From positions 55,002 to 119,001 of the forward strand of contig CAZWHC010000002.1 of NCBI GenBank assembly GCA_964633505.1: DNA of 64,000 bases. Direction: 5' to 3'. The notes under the pieces were generated by a model. It was not told where the DNA came from. It made no database searches and saw only the letters and a list, made by a program, of their open reading frames with translations. The stretch's first letter is position 1. Each line of letters begins with the position of its first letter. The stretch comes from an uncultured Rikenellaceae bacterium. Its GTDB lineage: Bacteria > Bacteroidota > Bacteroidia > Bacteroidales > VadinHA17. Below, piece by piece: positions 56,492 to 64,000 of this stretch. The position numbers were made by a program, and so were the translations under genes.

Positions 56492-58234
56492 TTACCTGTT
56501 GTAAAAATGCCCCTCTGCTTTTTGTCTTTTGGCGCTGCGTCTTTTTTCGGGATGTTTTGAAGACCTTTTTCCACGGAATTCACCTGCTCTGTCGTTTTTC
56601 GCTGATTTTTCCTGTGCCTTCTGAAGTACAAGCCTGCTATCCATATATTGCTTATTATGGAGCGTCTTTATAAGCATATCCGCATGGTCGGATCCGACTT
56701 CAAAAAAAGAGAAGTCCTTCATAAGGTCTATCTTTCCGATAGGTATCTGGGCGCCTCTTGTATTCTGGTTAATAAGATCTATTAACTGTTCGGGGTAGAA
56801 ACCGTCTGATTTCCCGCGATTTATAAATAACCTTGTATAATCACCTTCAAAACGGTCACGCGATCTTTTCCCGTTTTTACCTTCAGATCTCCCGGCTTTT
56901 TCGGGAACCGGTACGATAAGGTCCTCTCCATGACGGTAATCGTCGAGGAACCTTTCAAATTCGAGTGTGACAATTCTTCTTAGAAGCTCTTCCCTGTCGA
57001 GGTTTCCAAGTTTCTCCTTGATCTCAGGGATATATTTTTCTATCTCCTTATGGCCTGTTGTGACATTTTCAATCTTGCCGACCCAGTTGAAAAGTTGTTT
57101 CCCGCATATCTCCGTTCCTGTGGGGATCGGCAGTGATTTGAATGACTTTTTAATAAGACGTTCAATCTTGTTGAGGTTATTCTTTTCCTTGAGATGGACA
57201 AGGGCTATTGATATCCCTGTTTTTCCTGCCCGTCCTGTACGGCCCGACCTGTGGGTATAAACCTCGGGGTCGTCGGGAAGGCTGTAGTTTATCACATGTG
57301 TCAGATCGTCGACATCCAGGCCGCGGGCAGCCACATCGGTCGCTACAAGTATCTGGAGGTTCTTCTGACGGAATTTCTGCATCACGTTATCGCGCTGAGC
57401 CTGCGACAGATCGCCATGAAGAGCGTCGGCATCATACCCGTCGTTTATAAGGTTTGATGCTACTTCCTGTGTTTCTTTACGTGTACGGCAGAATACTATG
57501 CCATAAATGTCGGGTTCGAAATCAGCAATACGTTTCAGAACTTTGTATTTGTCCCTGGCATGTACAAGGTAATAATTGTGGCTTACATTTTCAGCCGAAG
57601 AGTTTTTAGTCCCGATAGTTATCTCTGACGGGCTGTTCATATATTTTCTTGCTATCGACCCTATTTCAGGCGACATTGTTGCTGAAAAGAGAAGCGTTCT
57701 TCTTCCTTCCGGAACTTCTTCGAGGATCTCATTTATGCTGTCGAGAAATCCCATATTGAGCATTTCATCAGCTTCATCAAGTACGACTGTATGTACATTG
57801 TTCAGCCTGGCAGCCCTTCTGCCTATCAGGTCGATAAGCCGGCCCGGGGTTGCAACTATTATATGTACGCCCTTCTTCAGTTCCCTGATCTGATTTTCGA
57901 TGCTCGAACCGCCATATACTGCAAGTATCCTCAGGTTGCCTGTATGCTTTGAGTAATCGGCAAGATCGCCTGTGATCTGAATGCAGAGTTCCCTCGTGGG
58001 ACAAAGTATGAGTGCCTGTGTGGAATTAATTTCAGGATTTGTCGACAGAACAAGCGGAAGACCGAAAGCTGCAGTCTTTCCTGTACCTGTTTGTGCAAGT
58101 GCAATAATATCGTTTTCTGTGCCAAGCATCAGGGGGATAACCTTCTCCTGTACGGGCATAGGATGTTCAAAACCAAGTTCCTTAATTGCTTTAAGGATGC
58201 CGGGAGTAAATCCCATTTCTTCAAATTGTATCAT
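56492..58234 (-). CDS. deaD: DEAD-box RNA helicase with DbpA-type RNA-binding C-terminus
   Basis: AQTGTGKT, PTREL, LDEADEM, SAT, HRSGRTGRAG; C-terminal RLFINRG...GKIDL...FSFFEV. Confidence 0.93.
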   Translation of the reverse strand: MIQFEEMGFTPGILKAIKELGFEHPMPVQEKVIPLMLGTENDIIALAQTGTGKTAAFGLPLVLSTNPEINSTQALILCPTRELCIQITGDLADYSKHTGNLRILAVYGGSSIENQIRELKKGVHIIVATPGRLIDLIGRRAARLNNVHTVVLDEADEMLNMGFLDSINEILEEVPEGRRTLLFSATMSPEIGSIARKYMNSPSEITIGTKNSSAENVSHNYYLVHARDKYKVLKRIADFEPDIYGIVFCRTRKETQEVASNLINDGYDADALHGDLSQAQRDNVMQKFRQKNLQILVATDVAARGLDVDDLTHVINYSLPDDPEVYTHRSGRTGRAGKTGISIALVHLKEKNNLNKIERLIKKSFKSLPIPTGTEICGKQLFNWVGKIENVTTGHKEIEKYIPEIKEKLGNLDREELLRRIVTLEFERFLDDYRHGEDLIVPVPEKAGRSEGKNGKRSRDRFEGDYTRLFINRGKSDGFYPEQLIDLINQNTRGAQIPIGKIDLMKDFSFFEVGSDHADMLIKTLHNKQYMDSRLVLQKAQEKSAKNDRAGEFRGKRSSKHPEKRRSAKRQKAEGHFYNR

Positions 58235-59866: not shown

Positions 59867-61387
59867 ATGAATATAACAAGAATTATTTCCACAAAAACAG
59901 AACTTAGAAATGAAATCATATTATTACTTGAAAAAAGTTTTAACCTGGCGCACCACATTGCTGAAAGAAATTATGATGATTCATTATCGAGAAATTTTGA
60001 TCAACTAATTGATAGTATTTGGATTCTGATAGAGACACCATATATTGACAAGGTGTACAGAGACACTTACTATAATTACTTCTCTACTAAACTTGCCCGG
60101 TATGAAAGGGATTGCATAAGGCTTTCATTCTTTGACGGAGAAATCAGGAATGTGGATTTTCAGGATGAAACAAAGCTTGAGACTCTTCGAAAAAGATACC
60201 TGGGCTTTATGGTGCTTAGGCCAACAGATCCTCAGGTCCTCGGGCGAAGTGTAATTTCGAAAAATGCGTTGAAGGACAACAATTTTATTTGCACTAGCGC
60301 CGAAATTCCTGCTACTGTTAATTCTGTTAAATTTAAAATAAAGGGATTTCCCCACTCATCTCAGGATACTGAAATAACATCATGTGCTGAAACAACTCTC
60401 TGGGCTATCATGGAATACTTTGGTAATAAATACCCCGAGTACAAACCTGTATTACCATCTCAAATAATAAATGTTTTGAAACAGGTATCTACTGAAAGAC
60501 AGGTACCTTCGAATGGTTTGAATATTCAGCAGATAGCCTTTGCACTGAAAGAATTTGGATTCGGGACAAAAGTCTATTCAAAAGAAGTTTATGGGGGAAC
60601 ACTCTTTAAAAGGCTTTTTTCTACTTATATAGAGAGTGGAATACCAATAATCTCAGCTGTCGAGAACAGGCCCGTTGGAAATATCGGGCATGTTTTAATT
60701 TCAATAGGTCATGAAATTATTAAAGATAATCAGATTGACAATTTAATGCCCTCAGCTGAAATAGAACCAGGCATCCAAAACTTGTTAACAGCAAAAAATA
60801 TTATACTTTTTGATAACGATGATATTGATAAATCATTTGTATTGATCGATGATAACTGCCCTGCTTATCAGCTTGCCCATTTGAATAGCCCCACAATCCA
60901 TTATCCTGATCCTGCATGGCATAACTGTAAGATAACCTATTTTATAGTTCCATTATATCCTAAGATATACCTTGAAGCATTTAAAGCGAAAAACTTCTTC
61001 CTGGGAATTCTGTTTAATTGGTTCACGAATATCCCAAATTATTCGAATATTTTCATCAGGTTCTTTTTATGCTCAAGCAGGTCATTTAAGCACGAGCTTT
61101 CATTAAAAAGAGATTTTAATCAGGTTATTAAAGATCTTATACTTGAAACACAGATGCCAAAGTTCATCTGGATAGGTGAAATATCAACAAAAGAACTAAT
61201 AAAGAAAAAGCTTGCAAACGGATTGGTTATTATTGATGCAACTCAGACAAATGACCAATCTGTTAAAGTTGTGATATCTGCCGCTTATGAAGGAGTTTAT
61301 ATCTTTTATGATGTTGTAAGTAAGTGGATTAAAAAAAGTTTGTTACCTTTGGGGTCATTTTCTATATTTACAAACAACCTTAAATGA
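59867..61387 (+). CDS. uncharacterised papain/C39-peptidase-like protein
   Basis: 506 aa; SQD...SCAE..LW (oxyanion Gln and Cys), GHV...GH, IDDN; N-terminal E.PYID..Y..YY and YLGFMVLRP blocks. Confidence 0.65.
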   Translation: MNITRIISTKTELRNEIILLLEKSFNLAHHIAERNYDDSLSRNFDQLIDSIWILIETPYIDKVYRDTYYNYFSTKLARYERDCIRLSFFDGEIRNVDFQDETKLETLRKRYLGFMVLRPTDPQVLGRSVISKNALKDNNFICTSAEIPATVNSVKFKIKGFPHSSQDTEITSCAETTLWAIMEYFGNKYPEYKPVLPSQIINVLKQVSTERQVPSNGLNIQQIAFALKEFGFGTKVYSKEVYGGTLFKRLFSTYIESGIPIISAVENRPVGNIGHVLISIGHEIIKDNQIDNLMPSAEIEPGIQNLLTAKNIILFDNDDIDKSFVLIDDNCPAYQLAHLNSPTIHYPDPAWHNCKITYFIVPLYPKIYLEAFKAKNFFLGILFNWFTNIPNYSNIFIRFFLCSSRSFKHELSLKRDFNQVIKDLILETQMPKFIWIGEISTKELIKKKLANGLVIIDATQTNDQSVKVVISAAYEGVYIFYDVVSKWIKKSLLPLGSFSIFTNNLK

Positions 61388-61394
61388 CACCGGA

Positions 61395-61592
61395 ATGTCG
61401 GAAATCATTAACAAAACCGCGGAGATACTTGCTTTACTTGAAAATGAGGCTAAGGTAAGATCTATGGACTCTAAGGAGGAAGTGGATGCTATTCTGGCAG
61501 TCGATAAAATTATGGAGGAAGTGGGAAGGGATTATCAGATAAAAGATAATAAGTCACAGATTGCCTCTGCCAGCGTGGTGTTATGTGCATAA
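61395..61592 (+). CDS. small 65-aa helical protein
   Basis: ATG 7 bp after the previous stop; ends ASASVVLCA. Confidence 0.7.
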   Translation: MSEIINKTAEILALLENEAKVRSMDSKEEVDAILAVDKIMEEVGRDYQIKDNKSQIASASVVLCA

Positions 61593-61788: not shown

Positions 61789-63540
61789 TCATATCAGAAG
61801 ATTTTTATCTGTCTTTAATATTATTTCAAAGTTGCCAACACAAATATGATGAAGCCCATAAAGGAACTTTTTGCCTGCTATTTTTAATCCATCAACGAAT
61901 GTCCCTAAATTGGATAGGTTATATAGCCATACATCGTTTTTTGAGTTTACTAAAAGAAAATGGAGTCTGCTTATTGATGTGTCATTAAGATCGGGGACAG
62001 GATTTTTAAGATATCCGTATCGGCCGATTGTTATTATTTCATTATTGCTGTAATATTTACGATCTGAACCGGGAATGATTATTTCAATGGTATTCTCAAT
62101 CGAACCTATTTTTTCAAACCGGTGCTCACGAAAAATAAGTTTGGACGCCAGCGCCGGTCCTTTTTTATTATCCCAGCATTTTAAATCCTTTTTTTTGAGA
62201 GAAAGATAAAAGTTAATGAAAGGATCATTAGTGCCATTTATCGGATCCTCCGGATCATTTGGATTATCATCTTTTGAAAGGGCAGAAAGCAGGTAGTTGG
62301 TGTAAAAACATTTTATGCCGGGAAATGTCTTTTTAAGTTCCTTAAGGTAAAGGAAAGACTGCTCAAATAATCCAAGTTCATAAAAGCATCTGGCAAGAAG
62401 ATTATGCGCTTCCGTATCGTTTGGATTTCTTTGAAGATAATCATTCAGCAAAGAAATGGCTTCGCGATGTTTTCCTGATTCAAGCTGCATCCAGCCAAAT
62501 TCTTTATGAACCTCGGCTCTTGGATTAAATTTCAGCAACCTGCCGAAATATTTATTTGCTTCAGCAATATTATTCTGTAATAAATAGTACCGGCCCAGGG
62601 AACGCAGTGCGCCCAGGTCGTTTTCGTGCATTGTCAGGGCAGCATTCAGTGCATTATATGCATTCCGCCACTTATGACTTTTTAAATAACGTTCGGCTTT
62701 GACAACAAGATTACCTGCCCGGATAAGTTTTGTATCAAGTATTGCAGGTACATATTGAGAACGTATCGCTTCAGCCATTTCACGTGCTGTCTGAAAGCGA
62801 AGAGCAGGGTCCGGTTCGACGGCCCGGTAGATAATATTCTGAAGCCAGACCGGCAGATTCCCGGGTAAAAGTTGTTTTTCTCTTATTAATTCTGACCACT
62901 CCGGCAATGGTTTCCCTTTATAAGGATTTAAGCCTGAAAGTGTTTCAATTAATGTTATTCCCAGGGCATATATATCAGTCCGCGGATCCTGTAAATCCGG
63001 TTCCGTTGCCCTGAAAAGTTCGGGTGCCATATAAGGTCCGGTTCCGGAAAGCCTGTTTGCCACACCAAAATCGGATATCTTTATTTCGTCAGTGACTGTA
63101 AAAAGTATATTGTCGGGTTTAATATCGTGATGCACGATATTCTTAAGGTGCACATTGTGAATTGTTTCACAAAGGATCTCAAACCATGGAAGGGCAATTG
63201 ACGGCAAAACTGGCTTTGAAAGTCTTTCTCTCAGACTCCCGTTTTCGCAGTATTCCATAACAAGACAGATATTCTTCTGCCGCATGAAGTGATGGTAAAA
63301 GGCTGTAATATTTGTAAATCCGAGATTGGCTACTGTCTTTATTTCATGTATAATGTTCTTCTGTTTTTCGCAATCCGTTTCCTTAAGCCATTTTATTGCA
63401 ACAAGCCGGTCAGCCAGTACATCTTTTGCCAGGGCAACCCTGCCAAATCCGCCTCCGCCGAGATATTTTATATACAGGTAGTTATCGTTAAAATACATTC
63501 GTAATTCATTTGATTGCCAGACCGGTATTGGTAATAACAA
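61789..63540 (-). CDS. Hanks-type Ser/Thr protein kinase - TPR - FHA protein
   Basis: GGGGFGRV, VAIK, HHDIKPDN, DFG, GTGPYMAPE, DIYALG; helical TPR-like middle; FHA motifs ITIGR, SISRLH, NLGTFVDG; alternative ATG at 63498. Confidence 0.92.
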   Translation of the reverse strand: MLLPIPVWQSNELRMYFNDNYLYIKYLGGGGFGRVALAKDVLADRLVAIKWLKETDCEKQKNIIHEIKTVANLGFTNITAFYHHFMRQKNICLVMEYCENGSLRERLSKPVLPSIALPWFEILCETIHNVHLKNIVHHDIKPDNILFTVTDEIKISDFGVANRLSGTGPYMAPELFRATEPDLQDPRTDIYALGITLIETLSGLNPYKGKPLPEWSELIREKQLLPGNLPVWLQNIIYRAVEPDPALRFQTAREMAEAIRSQYVPAILDTKLIRAGNLVVKAERYLKSHKWRNAYNALNAALTMHENDLGALRSLGRYYLLQNNIAEANKYFGRLLKFNPRAEVHKEFGWMQLESGKHREAISLLNDYLQRNPNDTEAHNLLARCFYELGLFEQSFLYLKELKKTFPGIKCFYTNYLLSALSKDDNPNDPEDPINGTNDPFINFYLSLKKKDLKCWDNKKGPALASKLIFREHRFEKIGSIENTIEIIIPGSDRKYYSNNEIITIGRYGYLKNPVPDLNDTSISRLHFLLVNSKNDVWLYNLSNLGTFVDGLKIAGKKFLYGLHHICVGNFEIILKTDKNLLI

Positions 63541-63542
63541 AA

Positions 63543-64000
63543 TTACTTTGCCTGATTTCTTAATCCATACAACTCAAGGTAATCATCACTTTTCCCAAGC
63601 TTTCTTAAATTAGTTTTCTGAGCTGCACTTAATTTTGGATAATGACGGGAATACCAGTTTTCAATTTCTTCAATTTCTGGAAGAACTAGAAAATAATCCT
63701 TATAAATAAAATGGTCAATAAAGTTCTGTTCATAACTTGAATAATCATAATCAGATTGTAATATCTGATTCTTTATTATGGATTCTCCTTCCTCCCCTAT
63801 ACTGTAATTCAATTTTACAGGGATTACCAACTCCTTAAGTTCATCTACTTGTGAATGGACTGTATGGCCAATATAATTCTTTAATAGATATCTTATCATT
63901 TTTGAGGTCAGCAGACCTAAAAGTGTAGAGATTTCATAATAAGATTGAAAAATCATTGAACCTTCTGTGTCAAAAGGCGTTTTTGATCCAATCCTAAATG
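63543..64000 (-). CDS. C-terminal part of a type IIG/Eco57I/PglX-like DNA methyltransferase or R-M protein, cut by window edge
   Basis: Frame is open to the window end (FRIGSKTPFDTEGSMIF...LLGLLTSKMIRYLLK...SQVDELKELVIP), resembling target-recognition C-termini. Confidence 0.6.
   Translation of the reverse strand, partial: FRIGSKTPFDTEGSMIFQSYYEISTLLGLLTSKMIRYLLKNYIGHTVHSQVDELKELVIPVKLNYSIGEEGESIIKNQILQSDYDYSSYEQNFIDHFIYKDYFLVLPEIEEIENWYSRHYPKLSAAQKTNLRKLGKSDDYLELYGLRNQAK

Follow-up and report, generated by a model that had tools for sequence, protein, structure and literature searches.

A stretch of DNA of 64,000 nucleotides from an uncultured Rikenellaceae bacterium (contig CAZWHC010000002.1, positions 55,002 to 119,001, catalogued here as G000:C2:55002-119001 and referred to as the window) raises the question of whether a protein kinase encoded directly behind a DNA methyltransferase belongs to the restriction machinery of its operon or is a defence gene in its own right. 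Kinase-based anti-phage immunity is known from few systems (Stk2, PglW, KKP, TerY-P and MAD6), whose triggers and substrates are mostly unclear. The gene in question lies on the minus strand at 61789..63498 (stop codon 61789-61791) and encodes a 569-residue protein (P0006) that combines a Ser/Thr kinase domain with TPR repeats and an FHA domain. As its neighbouring genes and the base composition show, it is the last gene of a four-gene restriction-modification (R-M)-like operon in an island of low guanine plus cytosine (GC) content. On balance, we consider it probable that the kinase is a conserved, horizontally mobile and largely autonomous defence-island module, which in this genome is the co-transcribed 3′ passenger of the R-M-like operon; the patchy spread of the family across phyla, the low-GC island, the diversity of partners and their re-assortment all support this reading.

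The protein is made up of three parts, which were delimited by Pfam, conservation and an AlphaFold2 model built from the family alignment (mean pLDDT, the predicted form of the local distance difference test, 88.1; predicted template modelling score 0.63). Residues 1-250 (62749..63498, minus strand, as are the following two) form a Hanks-type Ser/Thr kinase domain (Pkinase, E=5.5e-41), whose fold is closest to that of bacterial PknB/Stk1 (TM-score about 0.80). Residues 256-409 (62272..62733) form a TPR region of 9-10 helices that is matched by several TPR families, and residues 471-562 (61813..62088) form an FHA β-sandwich (26.1 bits against a gathering cut-off of 20.7; pLDDT ~90), which is separated from the TPR region by a linker that is partly ordered in the model. 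No transmembrane segment was found in the protein, the maximum Kyte-Doolittle mean over 19 residues being 0.99, and the preliminary description of the window, which had pictured a soluble kinase with an FHA domain at its C-terminus and TPR-like repeats, agrees with these results.

Motif invariance was judged in an alignment of 64 family members, using P0006 numbering. The glycine-rich loop (GGGGFG), the lysine of the VAIK motif (Lys36), the αC glutamate (Glu52), the catalytic loop HHD(I)KPDN (H123, H124, D125, K127 and N130) and the DFG motif (143-145) are invariant, whilst in the (A/S)PE motif (158-160) P159 and E160 are invariant and the first residue is Ala or Ser. Every defining motif of a Hanks-type Ser/Thr kinase is therefore present, and the protein is predicted to be active. 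The full set of catalytic motifs with HHD in place of HRD had been noticed from this one sequence; since HHD is invariant in the 64 homologues, it reads as the signature of an entire non-RD family and not as a decayed copy or a local mutation. The activation loop (D143 to E160) is short and has no conserved Ser/Thr phosphorylation site ahead of the usual Gly-Thr. The FHA residues that contact phosphothreonine (G492-R493, S510-R511-x-H513 and N518) are likewise invariant, so that the score, the fold and the ligand residues all identify this domain as FHA. The second most conserved region of the protein is the TPR core (residues 321-380), with an entropy of 0.83-0.92 compared to 0.71-0.84 for the catalytic loop. 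The suggestion that the TPR region serves as a sensor of phage proteins is weakened by this, as a core about as conserved as the catalytic loop is unlike a fast-evolving sensor. In a search of 1.8 billion representative proteins the TPR-FHA tail was found joined to this kinase family only, besides generic TPR proteins, with no case of transfer onto other effectors.

The family is well defined and widely scattered. There are 2807 family matches at E≤1e-10, and the best 120 all carry Pkinase, TPR and FHA within 565-580 residues; the label that NCBI gives to relatives is only "FHA domain-containing serine/threonine-protein kinase". A scan of one genome per species gave 162 relatives, and 62 family-bearing loci, together with the present one, were analysed (loci are numbered with the prefix L). 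At least 11 phyla are represented among the loci, and yet the family is present in only 2 of 401 Bacteroidota genomes, the sole other genome with a good full-length match having no homologue of the methyltransferase. Two copies per genome occur in Flavobacterium hiemivividum (L023 and L066, ~40 kb apart on one contig and in different neighbourhoods) and in a Candidatus Tenebribacter metagenome-assembled genome (L013 and L042). Plasmid and phage collections yielded only kinase-domain matches to housekeeping kinases and no full copies of the family, and 2.9 million viral contigs (IMG/VR) contained a single family locus (L115:6223-16031). At L115 the gene before the kinase encodes an RtcR-like regulator (CARF-AAA-HTH), and a pair of Hma genes, for the methylase HmaB and the DUF499 ATPase HmaC, is convergent with the kinase; at this locus, too, defence genes adjoin the kinase.

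The genes that precede the kinase are mostly those of defence systems, though not of any single one. Homologues of the methyltransferase were found in 15 kinase loci and homologues of the PLD-SNF2 helicase, which is encoded further upstream in the present operon, also in 15; among the loci whose upstream sequence reaches at least 8 kb, 37 in number, one or both are present in 17 and both in 9. Elsewhere, the co-directional genes 5′ of the kinase are other defence genes, among them those for BrxL, PglX(I), DruE, a DpdF/PsyrT-like helicase, Hhe/ProA-like giant proteins, McrBC, specificity subunits of type I systems, the Res of type III, a type ISP enzyme and PDC-M33. The linkage to defence genes, by which the preliminary description had proposed to judge its reading together with the identity of the upstream gene as a methyltransferase, is therefore strong, and both points stand. 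In 50 of 60 loci the gene upstream runs in the same direction as the kinase, and in the other 10 it is divergent. With family-consistent start codons, the upstream gap is at most 20 nucleotides (nt) in 17 of 49 cases, at most 60 nt in 24 and more than 150 nt in 13, and therefore the kinase is tightly operonic at some loci and clearly on its own at others; the gap between methyltransferase and kinase is 3-9 nt at L034, L048, L049, L058 and L059.

Downstream of the kinase, a calcineurin-like metallophosphatase of the PPP class (221 residues, most like the PrpA/PrpB protein Ser/Thr phosphatases and ApaH) follows directly in 10 loci, about a fifth, which belong mostly to one kinase clade; no homologue of it was found in the present genome, where the gene 3′ of the kinase is convergent. 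At two loci from Flavobacterium, the kinase is directly followed by a gene (L019:11785-12717 and L033:11796-12749) that matches JukA of the Juk defence system (PADLOC, 1.1e-22). A 506-residue protein encoded in the window at 59867-61592 (plus strand) has homologues beside the kinase at two other loci: at L011 (8454-10004) directly 5′ of it, co-directional and with a 38-nt gap, and at L055 downstream and convergent. This repeated neighbourship fits the residence of both genes in defence islands.

The same question can be approached from the side of the methyltransferase. A survey of 400 other Bacteroidota genomes (401 with this one) identified a methyltransferase homologue in 41 of them (42 of 401, ~10%, including this one), and 29 of these loci were fetched with 1.5 kb of downstream sequence. 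The C-terminus of a helicase like that of the present operon lies directly upstream of the methyltransferase in at least 16 of the 29, whilst a YhcG gene occupies the slot between the two, as it does here, in one. The kinase is absent from the downstream 1.5 kb at all 29 loci. Because about a tenth of the genomes carry the methyltransferase and none of the fetched loci the kinase, the helicase-methyltransferase pair would appear to be a common two-gene system that normally works without any kinase, and the kinase an optional passenger, not a subunit that the R-M-like system needs. The proposal that the kinase constitutes a dedicated phospho-signalling layer of the R-M-like system fares poorly against these counts and against the occurrence of the family behind other defence systems.

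The histories of the genes also differ. In a maximum-likelihood phylogeny of 57 kinases, the presence of a PLD-SNF2 helicase or methyltransferase nearby changes at least 13 times, and its clustering is no greater than that of shuffled labels. Pairwise comparison of the nine loci holding kinase, helicase and methyltransferase reveals at least three helicase/methyltransferase sub-types. The kinase of L039 shares 66-69% identity with those of L034, L048, L049 and L058, but between the helicases of the same loci the figure is only 28-32%, and the L039 helicase has 44% identity with the helicase of the present genome. The kinase of the present genome, in turn, shares only 38-41% with all five of these kinases. 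Since kinase and helicase histories disagree, the kinase appears to have joined PLD-SNF2/methyltransferase systems several times or to have been exchanged between systems. This incongruence argues against strict co-inheritance as a subunit, although the repeated pairing with one kind of partner hints at an affinity.

The rest of the operon lies past the end of the window, in the following 34 kb, which were also examined (as L003). Along the operon, the gene for the PLD-SNF2 helicase-nuclease comes first, followed by those for the YhcG nuclease, the methyltransferase and the kinase, tightly packed on the minus strand. The helicase-nuclease (P0005, L003:7827-11219, 1130 residues) has a PLD (HKD) domain at its N-terminus and an SNF2 helicase core, its best PADLOC match being "HKD+Snf2" (1.5e-71), followed by DrmD- and BrxHI-like profiles. 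It is followed by a YhcG/DUF1016 nuclease of the PD-(D/E)xK type (L003:6722-7873, 383 residues), which corresponds to the PADLOC candidate PDC-S02 (3.9e-133). The methyltransferase (P0003, L003:2544-6722, equal to G000:C2:118544-122722, 1392 residues) is cut by the end of the window, which contains its last 151 codons and stop (63543..64000, with a weak PglX match of 1e-6), represented by a truncated open reading frame at 63543..63998 that exits the window end and terminates in a TAA codon at 63545-63543. It contains the S-adenosylmethionine (SAM) motif I DPACGSG and the catalytic motif IV NPPY, with a long coiled-coil insert between them, and matches Pfam Eco57I (PF07669, 6.8e-17) and PADLOC REase_MTase_IIG (8.4e-52), with weaker matches to DrmMI and PglX; no nuclease domain was detected in it. 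All these features assign it, by sequence, to the Eco57I/type IIG-like γ-class N6-adenine methyltransferases, as the preliminary description had recognised from its 3′ end when it called the gene type IIG/PglX-like. Of the two kinds of neighbour that it had proposed to look for beyond position 64000, R-M-type genes are present and BREX genes are not.

The GC content is 34-40% from about position 58000 of the window to L003:12000, compared to 43-46% in the flanks, and farther out the genes are housekeeping ones (a SAM methyltransferase, Tag glycosylase, oxaloacetate decarboxylase and TonB-dependent receptors). A 257-residue class I SAM methyltransferase (L003:11615-12388, plus strand), encoded divergently from the helicase, has a partial match to PADLOC mad2 (3.6e-20) and is probably a generic small-molecule or RNA enzyme outside the island, though at its low-GC edge. 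Among related operons, the slot between helicase and methyltransferase varies in content: it holds YhcG/DUF1016 (PDC-S02) in this genome and in L099, a DinD-like (Bro-N) gene in L048 (5712-6581), L049 (5665-6504) and L058 (6077-6589), and nothing in L006, L034 and L053. It has the look of a site inside the operon at which auxiliary effectors dock. In one sub-type of the system a 95-residue HTH protein, which resembles R-M controller (C) proteins and CapH, is encoded 5′ of the PLD-SNF2 helicase, at L034 (2960-3250), with equivalents at L026, L049 and L058; no such gene is present ahead of the helicase in this genome.

How closely the kinase gene follows the methyltransferase depends on the start codon. 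The mechanically defined open reading frame (61789..63540, minus strand, 583 residues) begins with a TTG at 63540, 2 nt past the TAA stop of the methyltransferase, whereas the first ATG (63498) is 44 nt past it. About 120 kinase homologues of 565-580 residues align from that methionine, and the database gene call for P0006, which is 100% identical, starts there too. The TTG start is unlikely, the 14 extra residues being foreign to the family in both the homologue lengths and the 64-member alignment. Because the homologues and the gene call begin at the ATG, the true spacing is most likely 44 nt (spacer 63499..63542, minus strand), in an operonic arrangement without overlap; the "2 bp" adjacency reported earlier, along with the alternative of 44, was exact in its coordinates, but the shorter distance hinges on a TTG that is not the start in homologues. 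The kinase is probably co-transcribed with the upstream R-M-like system. A perfect Bacteroidetes-type −7 box, TAATTTTG (consensus TAnnTTTG; 63538-63545, minus strand), overlaps the methyltransferase stop and lies 39 nt 5′ of the kinase ATG, and may be a candidate internal promoter for the kinase; it is a weak hint only, because the motif is no commoner in the window than in shuffled sequence (61 occurrences on both strands compared to 69 expected).

Strain-level variation bears on how stably the kinase is held. The source organism comes from metagenomes of sludge and anaerobic digesters, and a dominant sister strain, in two biofilm metagenomes (runs X4 and X5), has the whole operon on a single contig, with ~96% identity in the kinase and 98.4% in YhcG and the helicase. 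In this strain the body of the methyltransferase (L003:2519-6295, window-equivalent 63518-67294) is swapped for unlike sequence of another length, with the first ~142 residues spared; in one example 1996 letters replace 2511. This looks like the swapping of methyltransferase alleles or specificities within the population, as is typical of R-M specificity genes, and since the sister strain holds the kinase, YhcG and helicase despite the swap, the kinase is kept whatever the methyltransferase allele. A contig that joins L003:718 to 11388, as though the four genes were a single indel, was present at 90% likeness and gone at 96%, and was discounted. No direct repeats flanking the four-gene block were found.

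A mechanism can be proposed from the architecture and from precedent. As HHD replaces HRD and no phosphorylation site is conserved in the activation loop, the kinase site may be competent without activation-loop phosphorylation, and the conserved TPR-FHA tail would hold the kinase inactive until an infection-linked cue frees it. The FHA domain could then bind phosphothreonine made by the kinase, either on the kinase itself in trans or on its substrates, leading to feed-forward clustering or substrate docking; FHA-driven auto-activation or oligomerisation, which the preliminary description had proposed, stays a hypothesis. By analogy with Stk2, KKP and TerY-P, broad Ser/Thr phosphorylation of host or phage proteins might halt phage growth in the style of abortive infection. 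In the fifth or so of relatives that have it, the PrpA/lambda-type PPP phosphatase directly downstream may serve as an antidote or reset.

Several observations weigh against an autonomous, co-transcribed module. Nearly half of the informative loci share one kind of partner, the PLD-SNF2 helicase and/or type IIG-like methyltransferase, and this, together with the 3-9 nt gaps in one sub-type, is easier to reconcile with a specific functional tie than with random residence in islands. The conservation of the TPR core argues for a conserved ligand, possibly a host or partner protein instead of a phage trigger. The picture of toxin and antidote is not general, because most loci, this one included, have no phosphatase. 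The transcript signal of the kinase gene consists of a single 257-nt contig inside the gene in one metatranscriptome, too thin to speak for co-transcription, and the defence role of the family is deduced from gene neighbourhood. A distinctly less probable but possible explanation, which widens the idea of the preliminary description, is that the kinase is a dedicated accessory or guard of nucleoside triphosphate (NTP)-driven DNA-targeting restriction systems, functionally or physically coupled to them. It could phosphorylate the helicase-nuclease or methyltransferase and so gate restriction versus methylation, as proposed for PglW, or it could sense a system blocked by a phage anti-restriction protein and trigger abortive infection in the style of PrrC-EcoprrI. 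It is favoured by the 17 of 37 loci with a PLD-SNF2 helicase and/or methyltransferase homologue, by an association that recurs across several clades of the kinase and involves at least three helicase/methyltransferase sub-types, and by the short gaps past the methyltransferase at five loci. Almost all the other partners are likewise large NTPase or nuclease systems that target DNA, many of them methylation-based (BREX, Hma, type I, III and ISP, McrBC and DruE); kinases are integral to the methylation-based Pgl/BREX-2 and MADS (PMC12839542, PMC13662399); the sister strain retains the entire operon with its kinase; and the conserved TPR surface keeps the explanation alive. However, the absence of the kinase from all 29 other Bacteroidota methyltransferase loci means that the system works without it, the partner sequences are too diverse for direct binding by one conserved TPR surface, and the kinase and helicase phylogenies are incongruent. 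The gaps of more than 150 nt in 13 of 49 cases and the divergent neighbour in 10 of 60 speak for independent expression. R-M-like systems are also the commonest residents of defence islands, and the enrichment at 17 of 37 loci is uncalibrated against the frequency of the same system beside other single-gene defence genes.

Two further explanations are less likely than both the autonomous module and the accessory or guard. The kinase could be a toxin-antitoxin-like addiction module that stabilises the island and does not sense phage, with a constitutively competent kinase toxin that is curbed by its TPR-FHA tail or by the PPP phosphatase and favours the retention of the mobile defence DNA beside it. 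The kinase-phosphatase pair in 10 loci and the position of the gene at the edge of mobile low-GC islands are in keeping with this, and KKP acts as a type VII toxin-antitoxin system (PMC11341870), but the phosphatase is missing at most loci and in this genome, and full family copies are missing from plasmids and phages apart from the one locus in 2.9 million viral contigs. Toxin-antitoxin and defence roles are moreover compatible, as KKP does both, and we regard addiction as the sole function as unlikely. Lower again, and improbable in our view, is an ordinary cellular signalling kinase with no part in defence that stands beside the R-M-like operon by chance; housekeeping signalling in bacteria makes common use of soluble kinases that have TPR or FHA domains, and the PADLOC PD-T4-6 models that match this protein also match PASTA kinases (PMC11514479). 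Against it are the rarity and patchiness of a family that nonetheless spans at least 11 phyla, the recognised defence genes adjoining the kinase at most informative loci, the low-GC island, and neighbours that vary widely around a well conserved protein.

A more speculative idea, which we hold as doubtful, is that of a portable "phospho-guard" at the 3′ end of otherwise unrelated NTP-driven restriction systems (PLD-SNF2/methyltransferase, BREX, Druantia-like, McrBC, Hhe-like and Hma), with the TPR surface reading a signal common to them. Candidates for such a signal would be a translocase that is stalled or inhibited, a cue from DNA damage or nucleotides, or a conserved anti-restriction factor of phages, and the output would be either the gating of restriction by phosphorylation or abortive infection. 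The autonomous module, which we favour, would add one more single-gene defence family, at present missed by databases or mislabelled as PD-T4-6 or MAD6. Whilst the presence of a kinase in a defence island no longer comes as a surprise, this family is well defined, widespread and easily tested: it is compact, soluble and highly conserved, has a confident model, and retains its kinase-TPR-FHA layout, sometimes with a PPP phosphatase, across at least 11 phyla. Its position as the last gene in varied restriction operons allows a test of whether phospho-signalling or abortive infection can be bolted onto DNA-targeting defences as a back-up.

No description of a kinase-TPR-FHA defence family was found in the literature, and the architecture is apparently undescribed in defence. 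Comparison with known systems was made with the NCBIfam models for PglW (NF033442) and MAD6 (NF047741) and with PADLOC and Pfam on all open reading frames of at least 100 residues within 17 kb upstream. A parallel in arrangement is PglW of type-2 BREX, a Ser/Thr kinase that shares an operon with a PglX-like N6-adenine methyltransferase. PglW is a protein of 1400-1600 residues composed of NERD, pseudokinase, kinase and wHTH domains (PMC12839542), whereas the protein here has 569 residues with TPR and FHA, and there is no pglY, pglZ or brxD nearby. The PglW model scores 41.8 against a cut-off of 990, through the kinase domain only and with no NERD or pseudokinase domain, which bears out the earlier remark that the architecture is unlike that of PglW. 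A BREX/Pgl reading of the locus was rejected: the upstream 17 kb contain no PglZ, BrxC or BrxL, and the PglX and PglW scores are far below cut-offs, the methyltransferase reaching 36.6 and 27.7 bits with PglX models whose cut-offs are 900 and 400.

MAD6, which NCBIfam names as the protein kinase of MADS, is the best PADLOC match (mad6, 9.8e-49) and is also a kinase within a methylation-based defence operon; predicted kinases are among the products of mad1-mad8, the eight genes of the MADS operon (PMC13662399). However, the alignment is limited to profile positions 49-307 of 659, the MAD6 model scores 90.5 against a cut-off of 460, and the trace of mad2 is the generic SAM methyltransferase on the other strand. 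With a match confined to the kinase domain and no mad1, mad3-5, mad7 or mad8, the MADS reading was also rejected. The BREX-related "BR" and MANTIS/Hma systems do not apply either, as the DUF499 ATPase around which they are built is missing from the locus (PMC12839542, bioRxiv 10.64898/2026.09.23.753747).

KKP of Pf prophages consists of the kinases PfkA and PfkB, one of them with an FHA domain, acting as toxins, and the phosphatase PfpC as antitoxin (PMC11341870). It resembles the present family in the use of Hanks-type defence kinases, the FHA fusion, a phosphatase partner as antidote and a mobile, patchy distribution. It differs in having two kinases (one with CSD, one with FHA) and a PP2C phosphatase borne by a prophage, compared to a single chromosomal kinase with TPR and FHA whose relatives have a phosphatase of the PPP/calcineurin class and which in this genome has none; with one kinase gene, no CSD and no adjacent PP2C or second kinase gene, membership of KKP was rejected. 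Several PD-T4-6 profiles match the protein (1e-43 to 1e-20), in the kinase domain only, but this match is not diagnostic because the PADLOC profiles also label housekeeping PASTA kinases (PMC11514479). Stk2 and PD-T4-6 are, like the present protein, single soluble Ser/Thr kinases and are thought to act by abortive infection; neither is described with a TPR-FHA tail. TerY-P, a kinase/phosphatase anti-phage switch found in defence islands, is made up of a vWA protein, a PP2C phosphatase and a Ser/Thr kinase, and we take the present kinase to be set apart from it by the lack of vWA/TerY, another class of phosphatase and other accessory domains.

The upstream system has relatives of its own. It shares an SNF2 helicase and a large γ-class N6-adenine methyltransferase with class 1 DISARM (DrmD/DrmMI), type IIG and type ISP systems, and its PADLOC and NCBIfam matches are to DrmD, DrmMI, REase_MTase_IIG and "HKD+Snf2". 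It differs from them in that DrmA, DrmB and DrmC are absent, all scores are far under curated cut-offs, the nuclease takes the form of a PLD domain fused to the N-terminus of the helicase, and a variable slot precedes the methyltransferase. The kinase itself resembles the kinase-based defences but, judged on its sequence, departs from PglW, MAD6 and KKP in the defining features that were tested. Were it to act as a portable phospho-guard, it would be the free-standing, exchangeable counterpart of the built-in kinases PglW and MAD6.

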